64,000 nt of DNA from a virus: positions 38,132-102,131 of IMG/VR virus record IMGVR_UViG_3300025000_000067; one strand, given 5' to 3'. Position 1 is the stretch's first letter; each line of letters begins with the position of its first letter. The notes under the pieces were generated by a model. It was not told the origin of the DNA. It saw nothing but the letters and a program-made list of their open reading frames with translations, and searched no databases. The position numbers and the translations under genes are program-made. Shown piece by piece: positions 24,646 to 45,505 of the stretch.

Positions 24646-24661
24646 AAAGGGGACGGTGTAA

Positions 24662-25021
24662 ATGACTAAGTCTAGATTAAGGCACTGCAAGGATGGCGTT
24701 CAAGAATATGATCTTCTGTGGCTCTGGTGCCCAGGGTGTAACGAGTACCATGCAGTTAAAGTTAACACTTCAAATGGTTGGAATTGGAATGGAAGTCAAG
24801 AAAAACCGACAGTTACACCTTCAATACTAGTGCGAGGTACAAAACCAATAAGTGATGAAGAAGCTAAGAGAATCCTGAATGGTGAGCATATTGAGTCAAT
24901 TCCACTGGTATGTCATAGTTTTGTAACAGACGGTAGAATACAGTTTCTTAGTGATTCAACTCATGTGTTAGCAGGCCAAACAGTGGATTTACCTGAATTG
25001 GACGAAAATGATATTGATTAG
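24662..25021 (+). CDS. DUF6527-like Cys/His protein
   Basis: WCPGCxxxH, WNWNGS.EKPT.TPSI, CHSFVTDGRIQFLSD.TH.LAGQTVDLP. Confidence 0.65.
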   Translation: MTKSRLRHCKDGVQEYDLLWLWCPGCNEYHAVKVNTSNGWNWNGSQEKPTVTPSILVRGTKPISDEEAKRILNGEHIESIPLVCHSFVTDGRIQFLSDSTHVLAGQTVDLPELDENDID

Positions 25022-25026
25022 AGGAG

Positions 25027-26295
25027 TTGAGGAGGTTGAAGCAATTGAATATCGTACTTCCGAAGACTCTGCAGGCATTGTCAAATGATCATAAGCTTCA
25101 GATAGTCTCTGAACTATCTAAGGCCCTAGATATTAAAAGCCCTAAGGCCTCGGGATTAGAACGCACAGTGTGGACCACGAACGATGAGCAGTTACTCGGT
25201 GAAGCTGAGGATGAACTTTATGAAATACTAGTGGGTCCAGCTCTAGAGAATATGGCTGAGCTCATAGCAGCCTTGGAGCGAAGTGATGAGCCAATACAAC
25301 TACAGAAGGCCTTCAGTCCAGAATACTTAACCTATGAAGATCAATTGTTTAAGGCCTTGGACAATGGTAAGCACAAGTTAAGTGATCTTATCAACCTATC
25401 GAAGACTAAGCGCAATGCTTTTACTAAGCTACTGCAGGAGGGTAGTGAGTGGACAAAAGCTAAGCTTAAGCAAATTGACGATATCATGAAACAAAAGTTA
25501 CCGGACTATGCAAAGTTAGCTGAGCAGTTTGCAGTAAGAGCAGCGTTTATAGCTAAGATCCGGAGTCATGCAGACACTGAGATGTTGAGCACTGTAGGCG
25601 CTTTTGTAGACCGCTTTCCCTCAACGATTAAAGAGGCAGAGCATGAAGGGTTAGTTCTAACTCTTAAAGAGCAGGAGAGGGCTAAGGCAGAAGGTCGAAC
25701 AGTGAAGATCCTTCCTCTACAACCCCAAGAACTTAGGGCAGTAGAACATGCAAATTTACGAGCGGGCGATAAGCTGACAGAGATAAGTGATCGCCACCGA
25801 GCAGGTGTCCGGCAATTAGTGATCCGAGCACAGAATGAGCGCTGGGGTGCTCAGAAGTTAGCTCAAGCCCTCTTTGATGCTTTTGGGGAGCAGAACAGAG
25901 ATTGGAGAAGAGTTAGCCTCACAGAAATATCCATGGCAAGTAATGACGCGTTTTTAGCAGGCTGTTCAGAAGGGGATACAGTGTGGGTTCCACCTGTTGA
26001 GGGTAGTTGCGAACACTGTAAAAAACTTATTGAAGGCAAGACCTTCATAGTGACCTCAGACCCGGGAGCTGACCCTCAGAAGTACATATGGGTAGGCAAG
26101 AGTAACTATGGCCGGACGGTTAAGGAGTGGATACCCTGTGTTCCCTTGCACGTTCAATGTCGGCACCGTTTCCACGCCGTGTCTCGATTCTACAAAGTAG
26201 ACCAAGACGGGAAACCTAAGCTTAAGACCACTGTAGAGCTTATTCAGGAGGAAAGGCTTAAAAGGGGCCTTGGTCCAGATTTGAATTTAAAGTAG
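25027..26295 (+). CDS. minor head / head morphogenesis protein (SPP1 gp7/Mu F-like)
   Basis: after portal; RV..TE, CxxC and PLHxxCR motifs. Confidence 0.75.
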   Translation: MRRLKQLNIVLPKTLQALSNDHKLQIVSELSKALDIKSPKASGLERTVWTTNDEQLLGEAEDELYEILVGPALENMAELIAALERSDEPIQLQKAFSPEYLTYEDQLFKALDNGKHKLSDLINLSKTKRNAFTKLLQEGSEWTKAKLKQIDDIMKQKLPDYAKLAEQFAVRAAFIAKIRSHADTEMLSTVGAFVDRFPSTIKEAEHEGLVLTLKEQERAKAEGRTVKILPLQPQELRAVEHANLRAGDKLTEISDRHRAGVRQLVIRAQNERWGAQKLAQALFDAFGEQNRDWRRVSLTEISMASNDAFLAGCSEGDTVWVPPVEGSCEHCKKLIEGKTFIVTSDPGADPQKYIWVGKSNYGRTVKEWIPCVPLHVQCRHRFHAVSRFYKVDQDGKPKLKTTVELIQEERLKRGLGPDLNLK

Positions 26296-27451: not shown

Positions 27452-30400
27452 ATGGAAATACTCAACTTAAAAGACCTAAATATTATAAAGGGGTATTTTA
27501 AGCAAGAACTTCACCCAAGAGCAAGAGATGGTAAGTTTGCTAAAAAGCATGAGGGTATTGTCTCTCCAGTTGTTAGAGAGGAGCCTAAAAAGGCCTCTAA
27601 GACAAGTGCAAAGGCAAAACCTAAGGCAAGTACACCAAAAAAGGATACCAAGAGCAAGACTACCCCAAAAAAGACCGCTCCTAAGAAACCTGATCCAGCA
27701 GTTAAGGTACCAGACAAGAAAACTGCAGCTAAAAAGGTAGCTAAGCCAAAAGAAGCTAAGAAATTCTATAGGTATAGCCCCGGTGCAAGCAGCTTTATAG
27801 AGGCAGTAGGGGCTAAGGAAGTCAAGTTAAAGGCTGTTAAAGGATCATTTTTCATGGAGCACCCGGACCCTGAACATCCCGAGGACACGTATATCTATGA
27901 GACTACAACAGGGACTAGGATAATTTCGTGCTTCACTGGAGAAAAAGATGCTATAAAAATGGCAGAGTCTAGGCTCAAGGGCTGGGGACAGGAATATTTT
28001 GAGGATAGGATGTCTACAAATAAAATGGCCCGTGGTCTAGCACCAGGGCATGAGAATCCTAAGAAAGTAGCTAAACCTGCAGCTAAAACTAAGGAAGCAA
28101 CAGCGCCTAAGATGCCCCCGGTAGTTGATGATCTAGTTAAGAAAAGAGTACCAAGGCCTAAGGTTGTTTTGCTACCTAAGACTAGTGATTCAGAGTTTAG
28201 TGACTTAGCTCCTGACTTCCAAAACAAAGGGCGTGTAAGAGTTATTGCACGTCGAGTAGGTAGTTACGCTGTGCCTAATATGCAGGTAAATAGTCGTGAA
28301 GATGTGGCCCAAGTTTTTGCAGATTTAACCGACTCAGATCGTGAAAAGAGCTATGTGCTGGGAACTAAAAATGGGGAAGTCGTGGGCATCCACTGCGCTC
28401 ACATAGGTAATGTTGATTCAAGTATTATTGACCCTAAGGACATGATGAAAGTACCGCTCCTATCTGGTGCAGATACAGTTTACCTAATCCATAATCACCC
28501 AACAGGAGATAGTACCCCGAGTCAACCGGATGTGGCAGTTACTGAGCGCTTTAGGGATGTAGCAGATCACATGGGTATGCGGTTCGGTGGTCACGTTGTT
28601 ATAGGTGACAATGAGTACACAGCTCTAAATGGTAATGGAAGTATCGTTGAATTCAACAAAAATATGGATCGTTCTAAAATCATGAGAACTGAGCAGGCAC
28701 CTATCTATGAAACCTATCAAGAGAAAGATGCCAGTGTACCTGGGCCTAGGATGAATGGTGTAGATGATGTAAAAGACTACATCAAAAATAATCTTAGTAT
28801 CCATGATGCTGATAAGGCCATTTATATTATTGGAGTTGATACCAAAAATGGTATCACCCATGCTGAGCCCCTTGATGTAACTTTATCACCTAATAAGCTT
28901 CGGAAGAAAGCACTTGAGAGTCTTATTAAAGCAAATAGTAAAAGCTTTTTTATGTACACGGGTTTTGGGTCAAGTGAAGTTATGCATAATGCAGGGATAC
29001 AAGATGCCTCTAAAACTCTAGGTATCCAGCTCTACGATGTCATTGTTCCTAATACCAATAGCCGGCAGGATATTGATGCTGGGCACTGGACCTTTCGCTC
29101 CTATGCTGAGAGAAGCATAATGAACCTTGTTAAAGGACTCTATATTGATCTTCAGAAGGCCCTTGCACCAGGCAAAGTAACCAAGACGCAGGCAAAAGCT
29201 CTGCACAAGGAACTTCCACCTGGAGGAGTATGGCGTTCGATGAATGGGCATCATATTTACATCCTCAATGGTAAGGTATTGGCCGGGGCTATCCCGGGGG
29301 TAAAGAGTGCTAAGAAAGCAACGAAGGCCCATTTAGCAGAACATCAGGAAACCATAGACAAAGAAGCTAAGGCTGCTGCTAAGCTTAAGAAGCTTAAAGC
29401 AAGAAGAGATCCAGCAGGCCTAGAGGGTAAGAAGCCTACAACTAAAACGGGGAAAGAGGCTATTGAAGATACACTCAAAGAAGTTAACAATAAAGAATCC
29501 TCGACAAAACGAACCAAGGTAACCCCTGAGTTTATGGCAAAGCAAAAGGAAGCCGTGGATGCGCTTGCTAAGAAACCAAAGCCTAAGAGCAAGAAAGCAA
29601 CGCTTGAGGAGCAGCAGGCTGAAGCTAAGAAGATGCTTGAGCCTACCACTAAACCTAAAGATAAAGCAAAAGAGATTTTAAACTCTAAAAACGATAAACA
29701 AGATAAGATTATTCAGGCAGCTTCTGAGCTTACAGAAGCTAAACGGGCGACAGATAAGGTTATTAAACGCAAAGGTGTTAATGATATCCGAACCGAAAAA
29801 CAAGCCAACAATGAAACAGCTTACGATGTGGGGGCTAAGATCGGTGGAGCTCGTAAAGATGTCGCAGTTTTTGATGCGTTTCTGAAGAGCTTAAGTGGGC
29901 AAAGCTTAGGGGATGTGGAAAAGATGTCTCCTGAACAGGCGCAGAAGTTGTGTGTTAAGAAGAATCTTCTAAAGCCTGTAGACTTTGAAGCAGATTATAA
30001 ACGAGGCGTGGACATAAATGTAGCTATCACAAAACAGCTTATTTATGATCGTATAACCCCTAAGCCTAGCGATGATACCCCTGAAGCAAGGGCAGGATAT
30101 CTACATGCTATTAAAGAACTACAACGGCAGCTAGAACCTGTTACATCATGGGATGAGTTTAAGAAAGCAACTCGTAACCTAGGAGACTGGATGAAGGCTG
30201 AAACGCCTAAGAATATGGGTGACCAGCAACGCTACTTAGAATATGCCCAAAAACAGTATGAAAAAGAACCAACTGAAGATGACCTAAAGGAAAGGGTCTA
30301 TACACCAGGATCAGATGTAAAATGGGTAACACTTACGCGTGATGAGTGGAAGAAGAAAAAGCTGGATAGGGTAAATGATGTCAAGCGAGACATTGAATTT

Positions 30401-33400
30401 GCTAAAAAAACTGCACAAAGCCCATATGCACCGCTCGGAGAGAAGTTAACGAACTTCTTTACAAATTACGAGAGTCGTGATCGGACTATGCAGACGGTAG
30501 CTAGTAAAAATATGACATGGGATAAATACATCTCTAAGCAAAAAGAAGCTTCGGAAGCACATAAAGAGGAAAAAGGAGCGAAGACTAAGACTAAGTGGGA
30601 AAAGATGATGCCTGCTAAGATTCAGCGCTCAGGTGGACGTGATACTAAGGTTCAAAAACCTGAAGAAATGGTAAAAACTTTCGGCTTTAAGGGGATAGAA
30701 TTTGGTAACTGGGTTGACGATAAGAGCGGAAACTTTCACCTAGTCAAGTGTGCTGAAGCCTTTCATGACCTAGCGGATATTCTAGGTCTTCAGGACAAAG
30801 ATGTGTCGATGAATGGTAGGTTATCTATGGCTTTTGGTGCCCGGGGTAAGGGTAAAGCCTTAGCTCACTATGAGGCTTTAAGTAAGGCTATAAATATTAC
30901 TAAAGAAGGCGGGGCCGGGTCCTTAGCCCACGAGTGGGGCCATGCCATGGATAATATTCTCTATCAGGAGAGCGCAGGCAGAAATTCAACGAATCTAGCT
31001 TCTGAAGGTATGGGAGACGTAGGGGATAAGCGAATCAAAGCGTCTTACGAAGTCCTTATGGATGCTATTCTTAAAGGCGATGGCTCAGGGATTGAATACG
31101 TTGACAATAAAGACAATGATTACTATAGCTATTATCCTAAGCGAAGACAGGCAGTAGCCGATTTAGGAATAGCAGGAGCTGTACTCAAATACAGCAAAGA
31201 GCTAGACTCTGCGCGTGATAGGGCATTGTCCAGTACAGAAGACTGGGCACAACGCTATAATTATGATAAAGCTAAGAAAGAAAAAGAAATCAAAAAGATT
31301 TTACGAAAACACACCACGGATAAGAACGCTATGGTTCAGGAAATGGCCTATCACCATAAAAAACTAACAGGCGAAGTACTAGACAAGATACCCGTACCAA
31401 ATGGTATGTCCCAATTTTACACAGATTCTAAGAATGTAGGCGGGGATACTGATTACTGGATTAGTAACTGTGAACTCTTTGCACGGGCCTTTGAAACCTA
31501 TGTTGAGAGCAAGATGAGGACAGGAAAGATCAAAAACGATTACCTAGTGCATGGGTCTTGGTATGATACAAAGTCTACACCATACCCAAAAGGTAAAGAA
31601 CGTGATGCTATCAATGGTGCATTTGATGAGCTTATGAAGAACGTTAGAAACTCAGGAGCCATTCAGAAAGGCCTATCCTTCGATCTTCAGAAGGGCATTA
31701 TTGGACGAAGTGACCTACAAAGACCCGTAATACCTATTACCCGAAGTGCATACAACGTAGCGAATACAGAAGGTATACTTTATATCCCTACCAACCGTTT
31801 GCAGACCCCTTTTCAGACAGACAAAGCTCTTGACTTCGATAAGGTCAGATCCAATGTAACCCGGATGGAAAATGGTGAAAACATTGACCCTATCATCATT
31901 GGCTGGAACTATGAGGTCCATGATGGCCATCACAAGCTTGAGGCAAGTAAAATACAAGGCTATACCCACTGCCCATGTATCATTGGTGAATTCAACGGCA
32001 TCGACAAGCAGAGGCTTTTTGAAGAGTACTCGGAGCTATGGAAATCCTTTAGGGAAGACTACGCTGAACCCAAAAAGTATAAAACTAGATCTTTAAAGAC
32101 AGACATCGAAACCACGGACCTAGACGGTGAAAAGAAAGCCATTATTGATTACTCCGAGCGCCTGAAGCAGATCAAAGACCCTAGGATCCGGAAGATCCTT
32201 GTAGAGATTATTGCCGATGAGAAGAACCATAAGCATAACCTTGCACAAGTACTATCATATCTTAATGGTGATAAGACCGCTCTTAACAGCAATAAGCTTC
32301 AGAAGTCCTTGGTCTACTTACCAGAGGTAGACACTGGGCTAAGCGCCTTTCCCTATGATAATGCATCGGGGATTATGTTCCGTGGTATTGGCCAAAAAGA
32401 GTATGACTTCATTCAGAAGTCTGGGTACATCCAGACCAAGGGTAAAGGAAACGATGCAGACCAAGAGAATGTTGTTACCTGCTTCAGTACCCTCTTCAGT
32501 CAAGCAGAAGGTTATGCTAGAAGTAACTATGATCTATACAACGAGACAATGGCCTATGTTTTAGTTGTAGAATACAGGGGAGTAGAAAATGAGCTAGGTG
32601 AAATAGAAGTTCTAGAGAAGACACCTGCTAGCTCCATCTTTGGTGTGATTCCAGTTCCTAAGACTCCAGTAATGAAAGGACTCTACATTGACTTAAAAAA
32701 GTCGATAACCCGCTCAGAGGCTAAGAAAGTACACAAAGACCTTCCTGAAGGTGGTGTCTGGCGTACACTCATGGGCCACCACGTCTACATCAAAGACGGT
32801 AAGATCTTAGCGGGATCAGTACCCGGGGTCAAAGGTGTAAAGAAGGCGACTAAGGAGCATCTAGCAGGGCATCAGAAGACCATTGATAAAGAGGCTAAGA
32901 AGGCTGTACCAAAGGCTAATGAAGTTAAGGGATTAGTACAAAGAGAAGTGGGGCAATTAGATAGGGGTATGACCGCACTAGCTAAGGGGAAGAAATTAAG
33001 GGCTAAGCTAGGAGATATTCATAGTTCAGAGGATACGTATAATGCCTATGCACGAAAAGTAAGTGAATACAAGGATAGGCTAGGAACTGACCCTCACAAG
33101 CTAACTTATGGTGACTTTTATAGTACTGCTAGAGAGTATCAAGGTTTTATAGGCAGTGATGAAATGCCCCTTAATGCTCTAGCCAAGATGAACAGATTAC
33201 CTAATAATGGGCTAAGGCGTGAGCTAGAACTGCACTATAACTTTGTTAAAAGGGCACTGGAGGAAGGAAAAGAAGTTCCTCCTGAAGTACTCAAAGATTA
33301 CCCTGAATTAGTTAGCGTCCATAAATCTGAAAAGCCTGTGTATGATAAGGCTAAGGGGGAAGGAACCTCCAAAACAAAAGGAGTGGACGCTAAGATGGGT

Positions 33401-34918
33401 AGTAGATTGAGCGCAACCAATGCTAAAAAACTTATGGGCGAGTACGGTGTACCAGCAGGTCATAGAGAAGCCGTACTGAATACACTGAAACACAGCACAA
33501 CGTCAAATAGCTTTAGTGCCCAAGGGCGGGATGAGTTAGATGTCACAGGTAGTAAACAAGTTATAGGACGAGAGTATAGCGCGGTGGATGTTCAGAAGGC
33601 CGTCGAATCCTATAAGAAAGATAAGAAGTTTGCTAAAGACGTCGCTGCTAAGGCCATAGCCATAAATGATGCTGCTAAACAGGAGAAAAAGGCTAAGAGT
33701 GATGCTAAGGCTCAAAAAGAGCTGGAACATGATGAATTCTTAGAGACGATCAAAGCTAACACTGATCAGATGTATAAAGATCAGGAAACACGTGAAGCTA
33801 AGAAGAACAGAACTCCTGAGCAGGTTGCTGCAGACGAAAAAGCTTTTGCAGACTTTGACCCTTTGGCTCTTCTGATGGCAGGTACTGAGCCTAATAAAGA
33901 ACCTTGGGAGATGACACCTGATGAATACTTTCATGACAAGATGGTTAAAACGGGGTACATGAAAGGGGCACAAGGTGAATACGTAGGAGTTATACATGAT
34001 CGATACAGGGAACACTTAGCAGGTAGTGCTAGCTTAGCACAGCAGAAAGAATGGTCAGATCAAGAGCATAAAAAACTAATACTCAAACATCATGCAGAGA
34101 CTACTTCTATGGCTGATGCTTTCAAGGAGTTTATGGATGCTAATAAACCCAAAGAAGAGCCAAAAATAGCCCAGTACTATAAGTCAAATAAATCTGTAGG
34201 AGACAGAACAGGTAAGTTAACTTATGTACCTGTAGATGGTAAACGGATTGATATAGGTGGCGATGTCCATGCTTTCATACACAAAGGAGCAGGGGGTCGA
34301 GGTTGGGTGATCACAGAAGTTCGTTCAGGTATTATGCTTGCTAATGGTAAAACTCAAGATGAAACAATGGTAAAAGCTCGGGAAGCCGTGACTAAGTTAG
34401 GCCCTACTAAACTAGCTGAAGGGGTAAAGAAGCACATAGACAAACATGGTGAAAGTCCAGCAACAGCAGAGCCAGGTAAAGCTGGCACCATATTCGGTTC
34501 TGAGCAGCCAGTAACACCCTACCATATAGCTGTACCTAAGGGTAAAAACGGTAAAGCTAAGTATACGCCCGTGCACAATGCGGAAAAAGTGAACGTAGGA
34601 AAAGGTATCCATGCTTTTATCCATGGGCGAGAAGGAGACTGGGCAGTTTCAGAAGCCCGCTCTGGTCTTAAAATTACGAGCAACAGTAGTAAGAATTTAG
34701 CTGTAAAAATAGCTAAGGAGTTAATAGAGCGCAACAGGGAAAATCTTGATACTATGATTCAGAAGCATATTGAAAAACATGGTGAATCTCCTAAGACAGC
34801 GCCTACGTTTGATGAGTACGTCAAAAAAGAAGTTAAGGGATCTACGGATCATTTGTCAGTAGAGGCATGGGGTAGCTACAGAAGAAGTTACGATTCCATA
34901 TACAATGGTAAAAGATAG
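27452..34918 (+). CDS. giant polyvalent protein (JAB/RadC x2, HExxH + LPD1-like, ParB-like, ferritin-like, ART-like, repeats)
   Basis: HNHPTGDSTPSQPD; GSLAHEWGH and ELFARAFETYV; DGHHKLEA; E..Y..DEKNH; FRG/FST/EIE. Confidence 0.85.
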   Translation: MEILNLKDLNIIKGYFKQELHPRARDGKFAKKHEGIVSPVVREEPKKASKTSAKAKPKASTPKKDTKSKTTPKKTAPKKPDPAVKVPDKKTAAKKVAKPKEAKKFYRYSPGASSFIEAVGAKEVKLKAVKGSFFMEHPDPEHPEDTYIYETTTGTRIISCFTGEKDAIKMAESRLKGWGQEYFEDRMSTNKMARGLAPGHENPKKVAKPAAKTKEATAPKMPPVVDDLVKKRVPRPKVVLLPKTSDSEFSDLAPDFQNKGRVRVIARRVGSYAVPNMQVNSREDVAQVFADLTDSDREKSYVLGTKNGEVVGIHCAHIGNVDSSIIDPKDMMKVPLLSGADTVYLIHNHPTGDSTPSQPDVAVTERFRDVADHMGMRFGGHVVIGDNEYTALNGNGSIVEFNKNMDRSKIMRTEQAPIYETYQEKDASVPGPRMNGVDDVKDYIKNNLSIHDADKAIYIIGVDTKNGITHAEPLDVTLSPNKLRKKALESLIKANSKSFFMYTGFGSSEVMHNAGIQDASKTLGIQLYDVIVPNTNSRQDIDAGHWTFRSYAERSIMNLVKGLYIDLQKALAPGKVTKTQAKALHKELPPGGVWRSMNGHHIYILNGKVLAGAIPGVKSAKKATKAHLAEHQETIDKEAKAAAKLKKLKARRDPAGLEGKKPTTKTGKEAIEDTLKEVNNKESSTKRTKVTPEFMAKQKEAVDALAKKPKPKSKKATLEEQQAEAKKMLEPTTKPKDKAKEILNSKNDKQDKIIQAASELTEAKRATDKVIKRKGVNDIRTEKQANNETAYDVGAKIGGARKDVAVFDAFLKSLSGQSLGDVEKMSPEQAQKLCVKKNLLKPVDFEADYKRGVDINVAITKQLIYDRITPKPSDDTPEARAGYLHAIKELQRQLEPVTSWDEFKKATRNLGDWMKAETPKNMGDQQRYLEYAQKQYEKEPTEDDLKERVYTPGSDVKWVTLTRDEWKKKKLDRVNDVKRDIEFAKKTAQSPYAPLGEKLTNFFTNYESRDRTMQTVASKNMTWDKYISKQKEASEAHKEEKGAKTKTKWEKMMPAKIQRSGGRDTKVQKPEEMVKTFGFKGIEFGNWVDDKSGNFHLVKCAEAFHDLADILGLQDKDVSMNGRLSMAFGARGKGKALAHYEALSKAINITKEGGAGSLAHEWGHAMDNILYQESAGRNSTNLASEGMGDVGDKRIKASYEVLMDAILKGDGSGIEYVDNKDNDYYSYYPKRRQAVADLGIAGAVLKYSKELDSARDRALSSTEDWAQRYNYDKAKKEKEIKKILRKHTTDKNAMVQEMAYHHKKLTGEVLDKIPVPNGMSQFYTDSKNVGGDTDYWISNCELFARAFETYVESKMRTGKIKNDYLVHGSWYDTKSTPYPKGKERDAINGAFDELMKNVRNSGAIQKGLSFDLQKGIIGRSDLQRPVIPITRSAYNVANTEGILYIPTNRLQTPFQTDKALDFDKVRSNVTRMENGENIDPIIIGWNYEVHDGHHKLEASKIQGYTHCPCIIGEFNGIDKQRLFEEYSELWKSFREDYAEPKKYKTRSLKTDIETTDLDGEKKAIIDYSERLKQIKDPRIRKILVEIIADEKNHKHNLAQVLSYLNGDKTALNSNKLQKSLVYLPEVDTGLSAFPYDNASGIMFRGIGQKEYDFIQKSGYIQTKGKGNDADQENVVTCFSTLFSQAEGYARSNYDLYNETMAYVLVVEYRGVENELGEIEVLEKTPASSIFGVIPVPKTPVMKGLYIDLKKSITRSEAKKVHKDLPEGGVWRTLMGHHVYIKDGKILAGSVPGVKGVKKATKEHLAGHQKTIDKEAKKAVPKANEVKGLVQREVGQLDRGMTALAKGKKLRAKLGDIHSSEDTYNAYARKVSEYKDRLGTDPHKLTYGDFYSTAREYQGFIGSDEMPLNALAKMNRLPNNGLRRELELHYNFVKRALEEGKEVPPEVLKDYPELVSVHKSEKPVYDKAKGEGTSKTKGVDAKMGSRLSATNAKKLMGEYGVPAGHREAVLNTLKHSTTSNSFSAQGRDELDVTGSKQVIGREYSAVDVQKAVESYKKDKKFAKDVAAKAIAINDAAKQEKKAKSDAKAQKELEHDEFLETIKANTDQMYKDQETREAKKNRTPEQVAADEKAFADFDPLALLMAGTEPNKEPWEMTPDEYFHDKMVKTGYMKGAQGEYVGVIHDRYREHLAGSASLAQQKEWSDQEHKKLILKHHAETTSMADAFKEFMDANKPKEEPKIAQYYKSNKSVGDRTGKLTYVPVDGKRIDIGGDVHAFIHKGAGGRGWVITEVRSGIMLANGKTQDETMVKAREAVTKLGPTKLAEGVKKHIDKHGESPATAEPGKAGTIFGSEQPVTPYHIAVPKGKNGKAKYTPVHNAEKVNVGKGIHAFIHGREGDWAVSEARSGLKITSNSSKNLAVKIAKELIERNRENLDTMIQKHIEKHGESPKTAPTFDEYVKKEVKGSTDHLSVEAWGSYRRSYDSIYNGKR

Positions 34919-34958: not shown

Positions 34959-34998
34959 AAAATGGGGCTAAGTGGCTTAGGCTGCTTAGCCCCATTTT
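34959..34998. other. long hairpin between the two giant genes (terminator or processing site)
   Basis: AAAATGGGGCTAAG ... CTTAGCCCCATTTT; TATAAT at 34935. Confidence 0.7.
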
Positions 34999-35023
34999 TA
35001 TTTGTCCAGAAGGAGGGATTCAT

Positions 35024-38000
35024 ATGAATCTATACATAGATTTAGAGAAAGCCATAGGTACAGTATCATGGAGAGAGGAAATTCACCCTCGGGATAAATT
35101 CGGAAAGTTTTCCTCTATCAAAGGTGGCTCAAGTGTCGTTACTCATACTGGAAAAACAGGCACTGTTGAGAAGGTAGACGGGGACTATTACCATGTGCGT
35201 CATGCAGATGGCAAGAAAAGCAGAGTTAAACGTAGTAATGTCATCCATGCCAATGACCACAAAAAGATCATGGACGCCCAGGCTAAGACCAAGAAGCGGA
35301 AGGCTTCTGCTGCAGTGGGTCAAACAACCAAAGCAGCGAATAGGGCTAATGGTACAGGTAAAGCCACAGAGCCTAAGCTAGTTTTGACCAGTGGCAAAAA
35401 GCAGCAATCCACTAAGGTAAAAGCAATGGAGCAGAAGGCCACGGCCGAGAACAAAGCAAATAGAAGAGCTAAGAAAGAGCGTGACCTTTCGGCCCCTGAT
35501 ATACTTCGGAAGCCCATTGAACAGGGAACGACTGGTAGGTCATCCCAGATGAAAAATACTGAGCAGAGTTCTCATGCAGAGGACTACAAAGATTTAGAGA
35601 ATAACCCTGAAGCTACGTCAAGGCTTGATGAGATGTGGAACTCAAAAGAAGCTAAGGCGCTTATGAAGAAAGAGCCAGGTAAACGATCAGAGGCTGATAT
35701 TCGCAGAATCGCTGGGGATATGACTACTCAAAATGACCGATTAGCTTATCACACAACCCTTCAGATGGGAAAGGCCCGGGGAATGAATCTCCTAAGTCAA
35801 GTTAACCGAATTGAGGACGTTGGACCGAGCGGTGATGGAGAGGTCCACAACCAAGAGACGGGGTATTATGGGGATCTTCTTCAAACAGCCCGAGCATCTA
35901 TGTATGAGACTCTATACCGGGTCATGAGCGGAAGTCAGAATCCTGGTAAAGATACTAATATTGGAGCCCATGTCATATCCCGTATGAAGCAGAAGCTTCA
36001 CAAGGATATGTATGCTCTTCTGAATGAAGTCCCGGCACCTCATGAGATCAGGGGAGCACTGGCAGACCTGCATAAAGGGGAAGCAGAACTAATCCAGAGC
36101 CTAGGCCATACACCATCGATGGAGGAACTTGCAAATCATTTGCAACAGACTTCGGCTAAGTTTAAAAGCGCACCGATTATGGACAATCCAACCTATGATG
36201 AAAAGACAGGTCAATGGGTAGCTACCAAGAAACGGATCACAGATCCAGTTGAGCGTCTAAAGACACTGCAGGCCTATAGGGATCGTCAGAAGACCAGTAC
36301 CTTAGATAAGGACATTGATGGAGAAGAAGGGACAGCAGGTTCAGCTGCAGCTAATGTAAAAAGTACAGAAGCGACACCTGATGAACAGTATGAGCAGAAG
36401 GAGCGTCAAAAAGAGCTTAAGACAGCGATCCCTAAAGTTCTGCAGGACATAGGCCTTAGCAGCAAAGAAAAACTAGTCTTCATGGTTATGTTTGGAAGTC
36501 CCTCAGCTAAGATCAACAAAGGAAATATGACCCTTGACGAAGTAGCTGAAGCTATTAACAGGCAGGGCGGGTACGAAGGTGGTAAGCAGGCAACCAAGGA
36601 CTGGGTTAATAAGTATTACAGAAGCGCTATGGTTAAATTATCTGATGCTCGAACAAAGAATCACCCGGCCTTAAAAGAACTTGCTATGATGAAGTCTCTC
36701 GTATTCAATCTCGTTATGAAGTCACTCTATGAGTATGATCTTGTGAAGTCCCTGAATTCATGGGGAATAGGCACTGATATTTTAGTATACAAGCAAACGA
36801 GAATTGCCACGGCAGATAACCTTCTTTCCTTGCAGAAGTCTATGGCACCCCAAGAGTACATTGGATCGATAGTCTACACCGAGGGTGGAGAGCTCCATGC
36901 CCGAATTGTGGAGTTCGGTTTACCTGAAGATAATGAGCTTTATAAAAGCTTCAACTCGTCTTTAGAGAAGTCCATGTTTCCTCATAAAGGTAAGCAACAC
37001 GAAGTCAATAAAAAGATGGGTGACTATGTAAAAGCCAATGCAAAAAAGTACTCTAGCCTTTCTGAAGCCCAGCATGGATCGGCTAAGAAAAAGAGTTCTG
37101 GGCATACATGGTCAGAAGAACTCCTTCTGAAGAACCCGGGCAGCGCATGGATTACATGGGGCGGTAAGCGGGTCCTAGTCAACACGTCTGATGGTAATCT
37201 CATCTATGATTCAGCGAATGAAGTTCATAGAGAGGAACATAATCAAGGGGCTCCAGAAGATAAGATTGACTTCCACCATGAGCAAGACACTGGGCATAAG
37301 GATGCGGGTATCGAAGCCTTTAAAGAAGACATGGAAGGTATGCGTAAGTCCTGGCGTGGTGACGAAACGGATAAGGACTTAGGCATACGGAAGACCTACC
37401 TGAGAGAACACGAGCACAAAGGGCACCATGACTATGCCAACTTCACAGAAGATGAGCAAAAAGCCTATGAGAGCATGAGTGAGGACGAGCGCAAAAAGTT
37501 TCTAGGTAACCGTTATCTGGGCAAAGAAGGAGTTAAAGAAGCTCTACAGAAGTACCGTGACAGTGGAGATACTGAAGCAGATCGAAAAGAGGCTATGGAT
37601 GCCCTATCCAAGGCAGGATCTATGGCAGGTAAAAATGCAAAGATGATGATTGGTAAAACAGGTAACAGTGGCCTATTAGCCCAAGTACGTAAAGGCGCTG
37701 ATGAAGATACCATAGTCGACTTGCTAGGTCAGAACGAACTTACAAGGGCTAAAGAAGAGGCTAGTAAAAAACTTTTACCTGATGGGACGTATCTGGTAGG
37801 AAATCCTCTTACAGGTAAGACAATAGCACTAAAGATTAAGAACGAAGTCACTAAGGCGGGCCAGGGTGGGGCTCATACAAGGTTCGGATCAACGATTGCT
37901 GAAGTCTTTGACCCTGATGGGGGTCAGCACGAGGACCTAAATACATGGGGTGGTCTAGGGAAGGCTCTAGGGTACACAGGTGCTGATGCTTCAGGACTTC

Positions 38001-41000
38001 AAGACATCTTAGCTAAAAAAGCCAACTCTGAGGGTGATAAGCCCTTTATGAAGCAGATCGATGAAGCTGAATATGCTAAGGCACGGTCCAATACCAAGCT
38101 AGGACTTCAGGAGGGCATGGCTCACAAGGACTTCAAGCTTGTTAATCAAAGTCGGAATAAAAAAGGTGAAGTAACAAGTCACACGTATGCACAGGACATG
38201 CCCGATGGAACCCAAAACACGGTTATGGTAGATGCTAAGGGGACGATCACAGATCCAGTCATGGCGCGTCTTCTGAAACAGAGAAAACCTATCGCCAATG
38301 CTGGCGATTTGCATGAGGTCATGCAAGGAGCCGTAGGTAATAGGGCATGGGTTACTGCTCATTCAGGTTCTGGAACTCATGTTAGTGACTCCTTAGGTCA
38401 TCACATTCAGCTTGAATATGATGGAAAAGGTGCCCCTAGGGTAGTCGGTGGAGAGTATGACAGTTACAGATTTATGGACACCAATGACATCCCCAAGGGA
38501 GCGGTGGATCCTGCAACAGGAGAGCCTATCAAAGCCTTATTCAAAGGCGGAAAGCTTGTAGATCGAGGTCTGACTACTAAGAACAAAGTAGCCATGAAGG
38601 AAGGAAACGCTGTTCTTTATCCTGGAGAAAAAGGATTCAGAAAAGGGCGTATTCATGCTATCGAAGGGGACACTTACAAGGTAACGGACGGTAAAGGCCA
38701 TGTTATAGGGATGTTCAAGAAGTCAGAGCTTAAGCAAGCTTCTGAAGAAGGCCGAACCTTATCAGCGAGTGGCCAGTCAGTTGTTAAAACAGCAAAGACG
38801 GGCACACACCGGATGGATACCACGAGCACCTTCAAAGCGGATAATCCTAAGGATCAGAAGAAAGTTGACAAGGTAAAAGAGCTATTCAGTCAAGCCCTTC
38901 AGAAGGCAGGTATAAACAGCGCCTTTGATAAAGACGGTGTTATGAATAACCAACTAGAACTATCAGACGCTATGATGAAGCAGCTAACCAAACGTCTCGG
39001 AAGATCAAAAGCAGGTAAAGAACTTCTTAAGCAGTTTAAGAGTGCTTATACAAAAGAACTTGAAATTCATGTACCTGAAGCTATGAGAGATCAAGTATCT
39101 ACCTATGGGGTTAGAGTCCTAAGCAATGGAACAGCTAAGATTTCAGCAGGTAAGTTTGAAGAGCTTAGAGAAGCCCTAGGAGGCCTGTCTGTAAGTCATG
39201 ATGCTAGAGAACATCTAGCAGAACATTTCAACCGTAAGGATCGTAAGCCTAAGAGTCCTGAAGAGCTTCAGAAGGCCTATCAACCGAATGCTAGTGACTC
39301 AGAAAGTGCCTTTGGCCAAGCGTACCAAGCACAGTTTAAACCAGGTGGTCGGATAATGAAGCAAGGTCTTTATAGTACGCAGCTTGCTGGGGTATCCCAC
39401 TTAGTTGAACGAGGGCGGGGAATAGTTGGACACGGAATGGGCACCGGCAAAACAATCACAGGTGTAGCAGCTGCTTTACACGAGAAGGCTAAGGCTATTT
39501 CTGAAGGAAGAAAGCCAGGAAAGACGCTTGTTGTCTCCCCTGCTGGAATTCAATCGGACTGGGGTAAGGAGATCGGTGGAGAGACTAATTCCAGAGCTCT
39601 CTACATTGGGTCTGAGGGTAATCTTCGGAAGAAGGATTCTAGTGGTAACTGGATGAAGTCTGAGGGCGGGCGTCATATGTTTGGGCAAGAGGGCACTGAA
39701 CAAGAGGCTGTGAGTTCTAAGCACTTTGTAAATAATATCAGCAGCATAGGCTCAGAAGACCATGACTTCCACATTATGTCCTATGACCAATTCATGAAAC
39801 ACCGAGATGTACTTTCTAAGTCCGGCCTGTACGACAATATTATTGTCGATGAAATTCATGCTTTTAAGAATCAAGGAAGACAGCGTGGTAAATCCTTAGC
39901 TGAAACAACTGATTCCTTTAAAAACGTTTGGGGCCTGTCTGGTACTCCCATGGAAAATGATGCTCGTGAAGTCCATAGCCTTATTGATACCGTCACAGGT
40001 GGAAGACATGAACTTGGTACAGCTAAGGAGTTTACAGATAAGTTCCTTATGAAGGACAAAAATGGTAAAGTTATTGGAGTTAAGCCAGCCATGGCGGATA
40101 AGCTTGGGGATATCGTAGCTAATATTGTTCAGTTCAGGGGTTCAGAAGACGTACAGTACAGTGATAGGTCCAAGATTCACTTTCCCCACATCATCGGAAG
40201 CGACGCAGCTCAAAAGGAAAATGCACCCGAAGACTTCATGAGTAACATGGCAGACCGTAACCGAGATCATAAGACAACGGATTACTATGGAACCAAGCAC
40301 TCTGTGTTTGACTTTGAAAGTGGAAGTCATGAGGTAACAGGCAAAAATGGTGAAACATATACATCCCAGACAACTTCGCCAGCTAATCTGAGCCCTGCTC
40401 AACAGAAGTTCTATAACGATTACCATGCAGTTCAGAAGCAATACCTGCCTGATGCTAAACTTCAGGAGATGGTTAAAGCTAGTGCCACGGGGTATGACAA
40501 CACTGAAAAGGGTGAAACGTCCAAGAATTACCTAACTGCTATGCAGAAGCTTCAGAAGCACCTAAATGCACCACTGGCGAGTAGGATGTATGTGCCCGGT
40601 GGGGGAAGTGCTCTAGATTCAGGAGATACAGATGTTCAGGCAGTAGCAGAAGCTGGGGCCAAGGCCAAGAAAGTGAAATCCGGAGGATTAAAACCCTATA
40701 ACCCAGTTACAGGTGAAGGCCACTATAAAGTCGATGAGCATGGCAACAAGCGGTACTTTGAGAGCGATGGGGAAGGTAGTTTTAAACGAAATAGTGACGG
40801 AAGTCCTAAGCTTCTCCCACCAATGCACCACAACAACCCTAAGGCTGAGTACATGAAGCAGCGAATAAGCACCTACCTAGATTCATTAGCTACGGAAAAC
40901 GAGGCTAGGGCTAAAGCAGGTAAACCAGAGCTGATGCCCAAAGTCGTTGTGAAGTCTAGTTACACTACCTTTGGAACCGATGTTGCAGACGGGGTTATTC

Positions 41001-41662
41001 GCGATCTACAGCGTGAGCACCCACACTTAGCTTATTGGGCAGATAAGCTGCAGAAGCAGGGTCAAAGTCTAGCTGCGGGGCAGTTTACCGGAGAGGCTAA
41101 GGACCGGGAGGAGACTAAGACCGGATTTAGAGGAAATAAAAACAGTTATGCAAAAGATCAGGGTAATATGTGGGCTACCACTGTGTCTCCAGCAGGCAAG
41201 GAGGGTGTAGACTTTGGTAATGCTCACCTAATGCTTATGATGGACCAGGATTGGAACCCTCAGAAGATGGCGCAGTTTACTGCACGTGTCAGGCGCTCAG
41301 ATTCTGCAACAAAAGGACATGAGCAAGTAGGACGAGCTAATAGTGTACGCATCGAATCTCTGCACATGCCCGGAACCATCGAAGACTTTATGTTCAACGC
41401 TGAAGATATTAAAATGGGGGATATTCAGAGAGTCACTAAGGCTACGCGAGATGCTGAAGAGGTTACTAAATTTGGAGATTCAGAGTCTAAAATTAGCTCA
41501 ACAAAGAACTTCACTAGGAGCCAGAAGCGCAGAGCAGGCGCTAAGCCAAAGGGTACAACAGGTGACCCAGGTAGTGCCCAAAGACCAAAGTCTAATGAAA
41601 ATCCCCCAACCCAAGTAGGAAGGCAAGTAGCTAAGGCTCTTAAGTTGGTAGTTATTCTATAA
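35024..41662 (+). CDS. giant protein: KOW-like + sigma70-like domain + SNF2-type SF2 helicase
   Basis: sigma regions 2-4 at ~35700-36650; helicase GMGTGKT (~39434), DEIH (39848), SGTP, AGKEGVDF, WNP..MAQFTARVRR. Confidence 0.85.
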   Translation: MNLYIDLEKAIGTVSWREEIHPRDKFGKFSSIKGGSSVVTHTGKTGTVEKVDGDYYHVRHADGKKSRVKRSNVIHANDHKKIMDAQAKTKKRKASAAVGQTTKAANRANGTGKATEPKLVLTSGKKQQSTKVKAMEQKATAENKANRRAKKERDLSAPDILRKPIEQGTTGRSSQMKNTEQSSHAEDYKDLENNPEATSRLDEMWNSKEAKALMKKEPGKRSEADIRRIAGDMTTQNDRLAYHTTLQMGKARGMNLLSQVNRIEDVGPSGDGEVHNQETGYYGDLLQTARASMYETLYRVMSGSQNPGKDTNIGAHVISRMKQKLHKDMYALLNEVPAPHEIRGALADLHKGEAELIQSLGHTPSMEELANHLQQTSAKFKSAPIMDNPTYDEKTGQWVATKKRITDPVERLKTLQAYRDRQKTSTLDKDIDGEEGTAGSAAANVKSTEATPDEQYEQKERQKELKTAIPKVLQDIGLSSKEKLVFMVMFGSPSAKINKGNMTLDEVAEAINRQGGYEGGKQATKDWVNKYYRSAMVKLSDARTKNHPALKELAMMKSLVFNLVMKSLYEYDLVKSLNSWGIGTDILVYKQTRIATADNLLSLQKSMAPQEYIGSIVYTEGGELHARIVEFGLPEDNELYKSFNSSLEKSMFPHKGKQHEVNKKMGDYVKANAKKYSSLSEAQHGSAKKKSSGHTWSEELLLKNPGSAWITWGGKRVLVNTSDGNLIYDSANEVHREEHNQGAPEDKIDFHHEQDTGHKDAGIEAFKEDMEGMRKSWRGDETDKDLGIRKTYLREHEHKGHHDYANFTEDEQKAYESMSEDERKKFLGNRYLGKEGVKEALQKYRDSGDTEADRKEAMDALSKAGSMAGKNAKMMIGKTGNSGLLAQVRKGADEDTIVDLLGQNELTRAKEEASKKLLPDGTYLVGNPLTGKTIALKIKNEVTKAGQGGAHTRFGSTIAEVFDPDGGQHEDLNTWGGLGKALGYTGADASGLQDILAKKANSEGDKPFMKQIDEAEYAKARSNTKLGLQEGMAHKDFKLVNQSRNKKGEVTSHTYAQDMPDGTQNTVMVDAKGTITDPVMARLLKQRKPIANAGDLHEVMQGAVGNRAWVTAHSGSGTHVSDSLGHHIQLEYDGKGAPRVVGGEYDSYRFMDTNDIPKGAVDPATGEPIKALFKGGKLVDRGLTTKNKVAMKEGNAVLYPGEKGFRKGRIHAIEGDTYKVTDGKGHVIGMFKKSELKQASEEGRTLSASGQSVVKTAKTGTHRMDTTSTFKADNPKDQKKVDKVKELFSQALQKAGINSAFDKDGVMNNQLELSDAMMKQLTKRLGRSKAGKELLKQFKSAYTKELEIHVPEAMRDQVSTYGVRVLSNGTAKISAGKFEELREALGGLSVSHDAREHLAEHFNRKDRKPKSPEELQKAYQPNASDSESAFGQAYQAQFKPGGRIMKQGLYSTQLAGVSHLVERGRGIVGHGMGTGKTITGVAAALHEKAKAISEGRKPGKTLVVSPAGIQSDWGKEIGGETNSRALYIGSEGNLRKKDSSGNWMKSEGGRHMFGQEGTEQEAVSSKHFVNNISSIGSEDHDFHIMSYDQFMKHRDVLSKSGLYDNIIVDEIHAFKNQGRQRGKSLAETTDSFKNVWGLSGTPMENDAREVHSLIDTVTGGRHELGTAKEFTDKFLMKDKNGKVIGVKPAMADKLGDIVANIVQFRGSEDVQYSDRSKIHFPHIIGSDAAQKENAPEDFMSNMADRNRDHKTTDYYGTKHSVFDFESGSHEVTGKNGETYTSQTTSPANLSPAQQKFYNDYHAVQKQYLPDAKLQEMVKASATGYDNTEKGETSKNYLTAMQKLQKHLNAPLASRMYVPGGGSALDSGDTDVQAVAEAGAKAKKVKSGGLKPYNPVTGEGHYKVDEHGNKRYFESDGEGSFKRNSDGSPKLLPPMHHNNPKAEYMKQRISTYLDSLATENEARAKAGKPELMPKVVVKSSYTTFGTDVADGVIRDLQREHPHLAYWADKLQKQGQSLAAGQFTGEAKDREETKTGFRGNKNSYAKDQGNMWATTVSPAGKEGVDFGNAHLMLMMDQDWNPQKMAQFTARVRRSDSATKGHEQVGRANSVRIESLHMPGTIEDFMFNAEDIKMGDIQRVTKATRDAEEVTKFGDSESKISSTKNFTRSQKRRAGAKPKGTTGDPGSAQRPKSNENPPTQVGRQVAKALKLVVIL

Positions 41663-44035: not shown

Positions 44036-45505
44036 ATGTTTGAAAACTTTAACGGCCTTGAGGACGGGTTTGGGCAAGGTACAGTTGGGGAACTTGAGGA
44101 GCTTAATAAAGCGCTAGGCACCGGGGAGCAGGGAGATGCCTATGGTAGTTTTAATGATATGTCGGCGCTGCGTCCACAGTCTTTAGAAGCAACCCTTAAA
44201 GTGGTTACCGCGACGACAGACCAAATTAAGTTCTGGAAACGCATCGGGAAGAAACAGGCATTTAATACTGTTGAAGAGTTCAACGTAATGGACAGCATGG
44301 GGGGAAATTCTTCTCCGTTCTTCGTTGAGGGTGGCCTTCCAAATGAAGAAGATTCACACTACCTCCGTCAAGCCCAGTACGTTAAATTCCTCGGGACAAC
44401 TCGTGTCATCACACATCCTGCAACTATAGTGCGTAACACAGTTGGTGATATCGTTGCCCGCGAAACTACAAATGGAACATCTTGGCTTTTGATGCAGCTT
44501 GAAAAAGCTCTATACTTTGGTAATTCCGCTCTTGACCCCTTGGCTTTTGACGGAGTTATGATGCAGGTTATAAATGCTGTTGCTGGAAAAACCTATGCGA
44601 ATCAGCACGTTATTGATATGAAGGGTCAACCACTGGATGAGAATACCATGGAAGACGCTTCAGCGATTATTGCAGATAACTTCGGAAGAGGTAAATTAGA
44701 GCTGCACTTAACGAACCAAGTTAATAAGGACCTATCCAAGCTTGTTATGGGCTCAAGTGGTCGGCAGCGGGTAATGATGGGCCAAGGTCAGGAAATAATG
44801 TTAGGCCAGCCTATCGGAGGCTACATGGCAAATGCTGGCCCGATTGAGTTTGTTAATAACATATTCCTTAAGCCACAGGCTACGGTTCCTTCTGCCTCAG
44901 CTAAAGGGGCGCCTGCTGTACCAACATACCCGGGCGGTCAGATAGTAGCCGGATCATCCGGGGCTACAATCCCTTCAGGAACCTACTACTACTTTGTAAC
45001 AGCTAAAAACAGCGCAGGAGAATCAGCACCAGTGTCTATGGGGTCTGTAGCTGTAACTCTAGGACAAGCAGTTACTTTAACCATTAATCGAGTAGTCGGT
45101 GATCCTCCGGCAAAGTCTTATAAGGTCTATCGTGGTACGAAGTCTACAGCTGCTGATGCCTTGTTTGCCTTTGAAATCAAGGACTCTGGTGCAGAAACAA
45201 CTCAAGCTATTATAGACACAAATGCTGATATTCCGGGAACACATAGTGCAATGGCACTAGATAATGATCCAGAAAACGTATTATCATTTAAACAGCTTGC
45301 ACCACTTATGAAGCTGCCTTTAGCTCGCATTTCAGCTGCAGAGCGCTTTATGATCCTGCTTTATGGCATGATTCAAGTGTACAACCCTCGGAGAATCATC
45401 GTGTTTAAAAACATTGGAACACTGGGCCTTAACTCCAACCGTGAGCTCTTCACCCCAAATTATGATGCTCCTAGCTTCGGTACAGTTCGCCCAAGCCTTC
45501 AGTAA
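44036..45505 (+). CDS. major capsid protein (SPO1/K-like, FN3-like insertion)
   Basis: ELNKALGTG, ALRPQSLE, EKALYFGNS, YYYFVTAKNSAGESAP. Confidence 0.9.
   Translation: MFENFNGLEDGFGQGTVGELEELNKALGTGEQGDAYGSFNDMSALRPQSLEATLKVVTATTDQIKFWKRIGKKQAFNTVEEFNVMDSMGGNSSPFFVEGGLPNEEDSHYLRQAQYVKFLGTTRVITHPATIVRNTVGDIVARETTNGTSWLLMQLEKALYFGNSALDPLAFDGVMMQVINAVAGKTYANQHVIDMKGQPLDENTMEDASAIIADNFGRGKLELHLTNQVNKDLSKLVMGSSGRQRVMMGQGQEIMLGQPIGGYMANAGPIEFVNNIFLKPQATVPSASAKGAPAVPTYPGGQIVAGSSGATIPSGTYYYFVTAKNSAGESAPVSMGSVAVTLGQAVTLTINRVVGDPPAKSYKVYRGTKSTAADALFAFEIKDSGAETTQAIIDTNADIPGTHSAMALDNDPENVLSFKQLAPLMKLPLARISAAERFMILLYGMIQVYNPRRIIVFKNIGTLGLNSNRELFTPNYDAPSFGTVRPSLQ

Follow-up and report, generated by a model that had tools for sequence, protein, structure and literature searches.

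The window analysed here is a stretch of 64,000 nucleotides of viral DNA, the right-hand 64 kb (positions 38,132 to 102,131) of the IMG/VR record IMGVR_UViG_3300025000_000067, which has 102,131 bp and is rated complete by CheckV. The window holds a myovirus structural gene block, in which a portal gene is followed by a minor-head-like gene, by two giant open reading frames (ORFs) of 2488 and 2212 amino acids (aa), and by the protease-scaffold and capsid genes. The 2212-aa ORF is our subject. From its N terminus on, it consists of a short motif, an SH3-like barrel, a Lys-rich linker, a sigma module, a cluster of predicted cut sites, a region of 640 aa, and an SNF2 ATPase (the coordinates of these and of the other features are collected in Table 1). 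We find that aa ~225-550 of this ORF are almost certainly homologous to the sigma-70 family, as a highly divergent member, and that the module is probably cargo of the phage head, judging by the gene order and the motifs that surround it.

The original prediction, made by reading the sequence alone, had listed a series of sigma-70 motifs in this ORF. All of them can be located between aa 236 and 539, and in the order proposed: QNDRLAY (aa 236-242), GDLLQ (283-287), IGAHVIS (313-319), VPAPHEIR (336-343), LIQSLGHTPSMEELANHL (356-373), STLDKDIDGEEG (425-436), LSSKEKLVFMVMFG (478-491), MTLDEVAEAI (502-511), TKDWV (524-528) and AMVKL (535-539). When a family profile made of ten members (profile A2) is searched against 177,635 PDB sequences, all 60 matches listed are sigma factors, the best being SigA with an E-value of 3.1e-10. 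The stretches that align colinearly comprise regions 2.2-2.4 with 3.0/3.1 and, separately, region 3.2 with 4.1/4.2.

The same family is retrieved by fold. We built an AlphaFold2 (AF2) model of aa 201-560 with 22 sequences, which has a mean predicted local distance difference test score (pLDDT) of 73.7. The best 50 Foldseek matches of this model are all sigma chains (E-value 3e-5, probability 1.00, ~280-370 columns aligned). The low global template modelling scores (TM-scores) of these matches reflect an arrangement of the three domains that differs from that of a sigma factor bound within the holoenzyme. VIA-align gives the model of the sigma module Z-scores of 8-9, which lie within the range of unrelated helical models; the rigid sigma2 matches are WhiG (Z 8.8, root-mean-square deviation (rmsd) 2.9 A over 99 residues) and the N-domain of SigE (Z 8.3, rmsd 2.2 A over 78 residues).

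Single-sequence profile searches are less generous. For the 2212-aa protein alone, Pfam reports only Sigma70_r3, with an E-value of 0.001 at aa 349-378 and 15.8-19.6 bits vs. a cut-off of 25.3. TIGR02937 matches the sigma stretch with an E-value of 2.8e-4 and 16 bits, below its cut-off of 42.9, and this is the sole weak sigma signal in the genome. The relatives fare better: P0028 passes the cut-off of Sigma70_r4 (27.4 vs. 24.1 bits), P0031 passes that of Sigma70_r2 (28.5 vs. 24 bits), and P0027 has a Sigma70_r3 match of 20.6 bits. The r3 family is recorded for three homologues, and one homologue was automatically named 'specialized sigma subunit' by the pipeline of the Joint Genome Institute (JGI). 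The comparison with Pfam r2, r3 and r4 that had been suggested as a check thus comes out divided, favourable for r4 and r2 in these two relatives but not for the protein itself. The sigma-70 assignment and the order of regions (2.1-2.4, 3.0/3.1, 3.2, 4.1/4.2) both stand, given the family profile, the Foldseek matches, and the Pfam scores of the relatives.

We also observe how this stretch evolves. Compared with two relatives at 96% protein identity, it has accumulated 132-136 synonymous and 14-16 nonsynonymous codon changes, a nonsynonymous to synonymous ratio (pN/pS) of ~0.04, and the sigma stretch is under strong purifying selection. By its fold and by five of the six regional signatures, the module fits the sigma-70 family; the signature that it fails is that of region 2.3.

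It is instructive to go through the module region by region. After region 2.1 (QNDRLAY) there is an insertion of ~25 aa that forms a low-confidence hairpin in the model. Region 2.2 (GDLLQTARASMYETL) aligns with the DLIQEG helix of SigA, and in its D-L-x-Q core-binding motif (GDLLQ, aa 283-287) all homologues have D284 and at least 90% have Q287. In E. coli sigma70, the aromatic residues of region 2.3 for recognizing and melting the -10 element are Y425, F427, Y430, W433 and W434. The profile alignment bears out the claim that these promoter-melting residues are replaced, and all of them are: Y425 by T311, F427 by I313, Y430 by H316, W433 by S319 and W434 by R320, whereas Q323 occupies the position of Q437. 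H316 and R320 are invariant across 22 of 22 sequences, which argues for a region 2.3 whose function has changed rather than decayed. In region 3.2, the family consensus SLDxNxGxEGE aligns with the finger motif SLETPIGxEEDS of SigA, and the linker is disordered with low pLDDT in the model, as expected of an extended linker. Region 4.1 (LSSKEKLVFMVMFG) is followed by the helix-turn-helix (HTH) of 4.2, with an insertion in the turn, and the recognition helix of 4.2 varies between related phages.

Core binding was modelled with aa 220-340 of the ORF and residues 200-350 of the beta-prime subunit of B. subtilis, which serves as a stand-in host. The complex model scores 0.69 (one of three runs gave 0.00), against 0.01 at most for 3 controls. 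In calibration, 58 of 80 solved complexes and 2 of 110 mismatched pairs attain this mark. The modelled interface is centred on Q287 and places region 2.2 (aa 279-298) on the clamp helices 260-290 of beta-prime. The weak points of the model are the contact agreement between runs (at least 0%) and a partner pLDDT down to 41. The structure prediction with a Firmicute RNA polymerase (RNAP) that had been proposed, made here with a part of the enzyme, is favourable by its score but not by the run at 0.00 and the low agreement.

Table 1. Features of the 2212-aa ORF and of the surrounding genome. Positions are those of the window unless marked as genome; arrows mark predicted cuts.
Feature	Position	Strand	Evidence or remark
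2212-aa polyprotein ORF (P0001)	35024..41662	+	full-length homologues 2200-2340 aa
N-terminal LEK↓A motif (aa 7-10) in MNLYIDLEKA	35042..35053	+	12/19 homologues match
HPRDKFGKF motif (aa 21-29), then SH3/KOW-like small barrel (aa 30-73)	35084..35242	+	weak YajC and Myosin_N matches
Sigma domain 2 (aa ~225-335)	35696..36028	+	profile, fold and beta-prime model
Sigma domain 3 (aa 336-420), regions 3.0/3.1 with small insertion	36029..36283	+	Pfam Sigma70_r3, colinear profile alignment
Region 3.2 'sigma finger' linker	36284..36385	+	profile alignment, low pLDDT
Sigma domain 4 (aa ~455-545), 4.1 and 4.2 helix-turn-helix	36386..36658	+	profile, TIGR02937, r4 match of P0028
Cluster of six [LIVMF]-x-K-[SA] motifs, predicted prohead-protease sites, possible head-targeting tail	36686..36976	+	conservation
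Conserved region without assigned function (aa 652-1294), up to LQK↓A motif (aa 1292-1295)	36977..38905	+	
SNF2-family ATPase	39401..41296	+	SNF2-rel_dom aa 1460-1678, Helicase_C aa 2022-2091
C-terminal VAK↓A motif, 8 residues from stop	41627..41638	+	18/19 homologues
TCCACT element	296-324, 552-580, 2298-2326, 2888-2916; genome 3268, 7962 (left of window)	+	
TTGTTCAAAGTTGTATAAACT box	5553, 15048; genome 7274, 17651, 27289		
Hairpin leader	342, 598, 856, 2936, 4548; genome 3315, 3965, 8015		
Terminase large subunit	18340-20157		
Portal	22837-24645		
Portal and 422-aa minor-head-like gene, upstream of both giant ORFs	22837..26295	+	
2488-aa neighbouring polyprotein	27452..34918	+	RadC/JAB, LPD1; N-terminal motifs in common with 2212-aa ORF
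Prohead protease fused to scaffold, 534 aa	42392..43996	+	17 [LIVMF]xK[SA] motifs
Major capsid protein	44036..45505	+	ELNK↓ALGTG motif (aa 23-26), kept in distant relatives
Tail sheath	49408-50832		
Tape measure	52324-55911		

A short motif, [LIVMF]-x-K-[SA], ties the ORF to the head proteins. The protease-scaffold has 17 occurrences vs. 1.6 expected, the 2212-aa ORF has 20 vs. 8.1, and 0 of 300 shuffles reach the count of one or the other; in the remaining ORFs of at least 150 aa the count is at, or modestly above, expectation. The capsid protein has a single N-terminal occurrence, ELNK↓ALGTG, where the propeptide cut is expected. Relatives (56% G+C) and a far more distant clade likewise have scaffolds with 16-17 motifs, and capsids with ELNK↓ALGTG or ELVK↓ALGTG. 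The cluster of putative cleavage sites that had been noticed immediately behind the sigma domain is confirmed as six conserved motifs within 100 residues (aa 555, 564, 573, 603, 639 and 647), kept in 18-19 of the 19 full-length homologues. Elsewhere in the ORF, the motifs at aa 1292 and aa 2202 are kept in 18 of 19 homologues and the one at aa 1975, just ahead of the helicase C-terminal domain, in 19 of 19; at the N-terminal aa 7 motif, most of the homologues that do not match retain L-x-K. Most further occurrences are not conserved. In addition, the 2488-aa ORF starts in the same way as ours: the first 30 residues of the two (in our ORF LYIDLEK↓A, followed by EIHPRDKFGKF) match at identical positions. 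Giant multidomain proteins encoded among virion genes have been proposed to be packaged and injected (PMC5512222), and in SPN3US the prohead protease processes the ejection proteins (PMC10052503). We predict that the motif cluster consists of prohead-protease sites, and the sigma module is probably head cargo.

How far is this arrangement conserved? An exhaustive phmmer search with one query sequence against 1.84 billion representatives gives 12 clusters, and a word-indexed search gives 22 homologues of 1250-2340 aa. The synteny of the head block is the same in relatives at 42-46% identity, which have genomes of ~94-107 kb, three of them with terminal repeats. In a more distant clade, that of contig L017, the sigma module is ~24% identical and belongs to a stand-alone protein of ~700-740 aa at the same head position. 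Its gene is flanked on one side by a minor head protein and an 824-aa ORF and on the other by the protease-scaffold and capsid genes, and a DNA methyltransferase gene is also located within this interval. This stand-alone protein ends with three LxK↓S motifs. The SNF2 fusion is therefore optional: by sequence comparison, the conserved unit is the N-terminal domain, the sigma module and the motif-rich tail, within the head block, and the SNF2 ATPase is an optional fusion partner. No relative appears in a scan of 185,579 bacterial species genomes, and P0030 and P0031 have no relatives in IMG/VR. Within the ORF, the 640-aa middle region has no Pfam or PDB sequence match, and neither has the N-terminal 200 aa, except for weak SH3-like ones.

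The original prediction had also suggested that the co-encoded SNF2 ATPase helps the sigma factor, and this suggestion is weakened. Conserved cut-site motifs separate the two parts, the distant clade has the sigma module alone, and the best solved relatives of the ATPase are of the Rad54/ISWI type. The ATPase itself has a Walker A motif GMGTGKT (aa 1471-1477) and a DEIH motif (aa 1609-1612), and its best solved relatives, among those listed, are Rad54/ISWI/CHD-type; a RapA-like SNF2 partner, which we considered, is unsupported for the same reason.

The SNF2 part is also the site of an insertion in one relative, L009, in which the gene is broken exactly within Walker A (after GHG) by ~880 bp (L009:14090-14966). 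The insert carries a 213-aa ORF for a LAGLIDADG endonuclease, and the database proteins P0010 and P0017 stop at the insertion point. By its position and content, the insert is probably a group I intron. Upstream of the 2212-aa ORF there is a gap of 105 nt (window 34919-35023) that contains, one after the other, CTTCGGAAG, then TGTGTATAAT, which resembles an extended -10, then a GC-rich hairpin accompanied by a T-run, and lastly a ribosome-binding site. This gap may be either the terminator of the upstream ORF or a regulated leader.

As for promoters, the genome has six copies of a 29-nt promoter-like element, TCCACT-N17-TAT(A/G)(G/T/A)T, all on the plus strand and each 60-80 nt upstream of a gene start. 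Its spacer is conserved too (TTTTTAAAxAxxCCTATG); its -35 differs from TTGACA, and its -10 is near the host type. The element could be read by the module, or by the sigma of the host, assisted by an activator from the phage in the manner of T4 middle promoters. With a host-like -10, the appropriation of sigma by another factor is as possible as the earlier pairing of the module with TCCACT-N17-TATRKT promoters, and we count the TCCACT elements as possible targets of the module. The pattern TCCACT-N17-TATNNT is absent in three of five related records and has 3 and 1 matches in the other two; because the recognition helix of region 4.2 varies between phages, this survey decides neither way on the pairing of sigma and promoter. 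The genome also has host-type promoters, for example TTGACA-N17-TAAACT and TTGATA-N17-TATAAT. A second sigma-family gene was not detected in the 102-kb genome with PF04542, PF04545, TIGR02937 or our own family profile, which very divergent phage sigmas may escape. A search for a T7-type RNAP (PF00940) gave no match, but its control was likewise silent.

We lean towards a chain of events in which the polyprotein is packaged and cleaved, the sigma fragment is ejected, and the host RNAP is redirected to phage promoters. The polyprotein would enter the prohead, perhaps by means of the shared N-terminal LYIDLxK/HPRxxGKF motifs or of the conserved tail that follows the sigma module. The prohead protease would cut at [LIVMF]-x-K↓[S/A], taking off the first 9 residues and producing a ~60-kDa fragment (aa ~10-557) with the SH3-like domain and the sigma module, apart from the SNF2 ATPase. 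The sigma fragment would stay in the filled head and be ejected along with the DNA; an all-helical protein built like beads on a string would be well suited to unfolded passage through the tail tube. Once in the cell, region 2.2 would bind the beta-prime clamp helices of the host core RNAP, to which the finger and domain 4 would also bind, and domain 4 together with the altered region 2.3/2.4 would steer RNAP to phage promoters ahead of all phage protein synthesis.

Packaging, cleavage, injection and sigma activity of the module are all steps that we infer. The injected sigma factor of the original prediction is compatible with the head position, the shared protease-type motifs, region 2.2 and the finger, and with the fact that no other sigma was detected, but it keeps that inferred status. 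The wider proposal is that a clade of ~100-kb myoviruses seen only in metagenomes packages a sigma factor, which the prohead protease frees from the polyprotein and which, once ejected along with the DNA, reprogrammes the host core RNAP at time zero, with a -10 surface built on the invariant His/Arg pair in place of the universal Tyr/Trp residues. We put it forward tentatively, as somewhat short of evenly balanced.

Several observations weigh against the injected sigma factor. The 2212-aa protein itself passes no Pfam sigma cut-off. A megablast of the ORF and a tblastn of the sigma stretch, both against 50,697 phage records, yield no cultured relative. The motifs of the cluster could have a structural or docking role instead of being cut sites. 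By its sequence, region 2.3 has lost the aromatics, and promoter opening may be impaired or may work differently. Complexes of sigma with beta-prime have already been solved and the host used is a stand-in, so that the score of the complex model may show likeness only. And host-type promoters exist in the genome; therefore, an injected sigma is not obviously required for the first transcription.

These observations can be turned into other explanations. The most sceptical is that a helical region resembles sigma factors by chance or by composition, without homology to them. It could appeal to the sub-threshold r3 match, which is just what the 2212-aa protein yields alone in Pfam, and to the VIA-align scores, but it would have to produce PDB matches that are exclusively sigma and colinear over four regions at an E-value of 3e-10, a top 50 of Foldseek made up of sigma chains throughout, and relatives that exceed curated r2 and r4 cut-offs. 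The relatives' Pfam scores, the PDB search with the family profile, and Foldseek effectively refute it already, and we find it hardly credible. It is also conceivable, and more deserving of attention, that the module is a decoy for RNAP, injected or made late, that has kept core binding and lost promoter melting, so that it displaces the host sigma and shuts off or holds the host RNAP. Such a decoy would agree with the replacement of all region 2.3 aromatics, with a conserved core-binding region 2.2 that is modelled onto the beta-prime clamp helices, and with a phage that carries host-type promoters. Yet the parts that read DNA are needless for a pure decoy, and the domain 4 HTH, region 2.4 and the 3.2 finger are all kept under strong purifying selection, while the invariant H316 and R320 indicate a function that was changed, not lost. 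The phage would moreover block an enzyme that it needs itself, no RNAP of its own having been detected (in a search whose control was silent). We judge the decoy unlikely.

Two further alternatives keep a real sigma domain and change its place of action. The module could be a sigma factor that works late within the cell, or a late or lysogenic regulator, encoded in the late operon and never packaged, with the LxKS motifs being structural. Known phage sigma factors do work inside the infected cell, and our searches of this genome turned up no further sigma that could serve its middle or late genes. However, the site between the minor-head and protease genes is kept across clades at 24-46% identity, with or without SNF2; the motif cluster, common to the scaffold and the capsid propeptide, is kept in 18-19 of 19 homologues; the N-terminal motifs are common with the neighbouring polyvalent-type giant protein; and no cytoplasmic phage sigma looks like a fusion of 2212 aa, or like a protein of ~700 aa that has additional domains. 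We regard this alternative as distinctly unlikely. Sigma domains 2 and 4 are DNA-binding modules, and incoming DNA is the target of polyvalent SNF2 proteins like P1 DarB (PMC5512222), which would suit a sigma-derived domain that anchors the polyprotein or the SNF2 motor to a site on the phage genome, as a pilot or for end protection, with no role for RNAP. Such an anchor explains neither the conservation of the parts specific to RNAP (the core-binding motif of region 2.2 and the 3.2 finger) nor the stand-alone versions that lack the SNF2 part, and it seems quite improbable to us.

Other signals in the genome touch on transcription. A 21-nt box, TTGTTCAAAGTTGTATAAACT, has five copies (0-5 mismatches) vs. 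0-1 in shuffles. We rejected it as a second class of phage promoter, as it adjoins or overlaps promoters of the TTGACA/TTGATA-N17-TATAAT type; from this placement, it looks like an operator for a phage regulator. At the starts of at least 8 genes there is a leader with a GGGG-loop-CCCC hairpin, followed by CCCCTAAAA(T/C)AAAAGGAG and, ~10 nt further on, the start codon. The hairpin leader is present with and without the TCCACT element, and it may be a 5' untranslated region (UTR) signal for stability, processing or translation. Finally, the palindrome CTTCNGAAG has 79 copies in 102 kb (e.g., at window 34920, 42204, 42371 and 51425) vs. ~1.9 expected, 66 of them coding and 13 intergenic, and several of the intergenic copies are directly upstream of -10-like hexamers.

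Among the neighbouring genes, the capsid protein is ~37% identical to its counterparts in SPO1-like Bacillus phages. As regards an anchor domain of the MuF/SPP1 gp7 type, within the giant protein or beside it, the 422-aa ORF next to the giant ORFs has zero Pfam matches and a weak PHROG match to a portal family (E-value 4e-5); its equivalent in L017 matches the 'minor head protein' phrog_115 (E-value 3e-5). The 2488-aa ORF resembles a string of cargo modules, with RadC/JAB at aa 280-395, a HEWGH zincin-like motif, and LPD1 at aa 1332-1400. At two of its internal junctions there is LYIDLxK[AS] followed by the motif GGVWR..GHH.YI, which is also found at the head of the distant sigma-module proteins P0027 and P0030. 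Replication genes are in the left arm of the genome. Left of the window, at genome 31734-37730, lies the only large minus-strand block, whose products are a replication-initiation protein (phrog_9381), an 825-aa protein without known function, and a partition protein (phrog_691); an initiator and a partition protein on the minus strand hint that the phage may be able to persist as a plasmid-like prophage. A tRNA-Ile gene with anticodon TAT is found at genome 12477-12552, also left of the window, and no tRNA genes were found within the 64-kb window.

There are two accepted ways in which phages start transcription, either from early promoters that mimic those of the host, or with a complete RNA polymerase that comes in the particle. 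If the sigma factor is indeed injected, it would be the first one delivered by a virion, and a third way to start phage transcription. It would be a cheaper solution, in that only the specificity subunit is carried, and it would give the phage control of promoters before any gene expression, perhaps evading defences that sense early transcription or translation. If active, the module would be an example of alternative promoter melting, where the core-binding helix, the finger and domain 4 are kept without the -10 aromatics. It would also extend the catalogue of polyvalent virion proteins by a domain for transcription initiation, and the predicted hydrophobic-x-Lys↓Ser cleavage code could be used to map cargo in this phage group.

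Relative to sigma factors of groups 1-3 (SigA/RpoD, SigB, WhiG/FliA), the module has the same order of sigma2, sigma3, 3.2 finger and sigma4, the region 2.2 DLxQ, the SLxxxxGxE finger motif and the 4.1/4.2 HTH. Unlike them, it has T, I, H, S and R in place of the region 2.3 aromatics, it carries insertions (at the 2.1/2.2 junction, within domain 3 and in the turn of 4.2), and it lies inside a 2212-aa head polyprotein, where the SH3-like domain and the Lys-rich linker precede it. By analogy with SPO1 gp28 and gp33/34, T4 gp55 and phiEco32 gp36 (PMC8948821), the module would be a specificity subunit that the phage supplies to the host core RNAP. Those phage sigma factors are small, stand-alone products of early or middle genes, synthesized once infection has begun, whereas the module is in the head-morphogenesis block, flanked by protease-type motifs, and fused or adjacent to other cargo domains.

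The closest parallels in delivery come from phages that carry proteins in the particle. N4, with its virion RNA polymerase (vRNAP), and phiKZ/AR9, with their virion RNAP, have transcription machinery in the particle and can read early genes without new protein synthesis (PMC13434306, PMC5449584), as would be the case here; they deliver a catalytic polymerase, whereas here only a sigma-like specificity subunit would enter and the host core would be used. T4 Alt, the T4 internal proteins and the SPN3US ejection proteins are packaged in the head and cut by the prohead protease at a consensus motif that scaffold and capsid also have (PMC5512222, PMC10052503, PMC7411985). The 2212-aa ORF likewise has a motif in common with scaffold and capsid; in our case the cleavage is predicted, and the predicted site is hydrophobic-x-Lys↓Ser/Ala where T4 and phiKZ-like phages have Glu-type sites. 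T4 Alt also acts on the host RNAP at the onset of infection, by ADP-ribosylation; the module would instead replace the sigma subunit.

Lastly, the ORF is like the polyvalent proteins and P1 DarB in being a giant multidomain protein among virion genes with a SWI2/SNF2 ATPase (PMC5512222), and the neighbouring 2488-aa ORF has the RadC/JAB and LPD1 domains catalogued for polyvalent proteins (PMC5512222); unlike in those systems, there is no methylase partner in the 2212-aa ORF. The survey by Iyer et al. (2017) in which the polyvalent proteins of phages and conjugative elements were defined has 0 occurrences of the word 'sigma' (PMC5512222), and in the full-text literature that we searched neither such an arrangement nor any sigma factor that is packaged or injected is reported. 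Sigma factors on the one hand and polyvalent head cargo on the other are already known separately, and what is new is a sigma factor inside head cargo of the polyvalent type.

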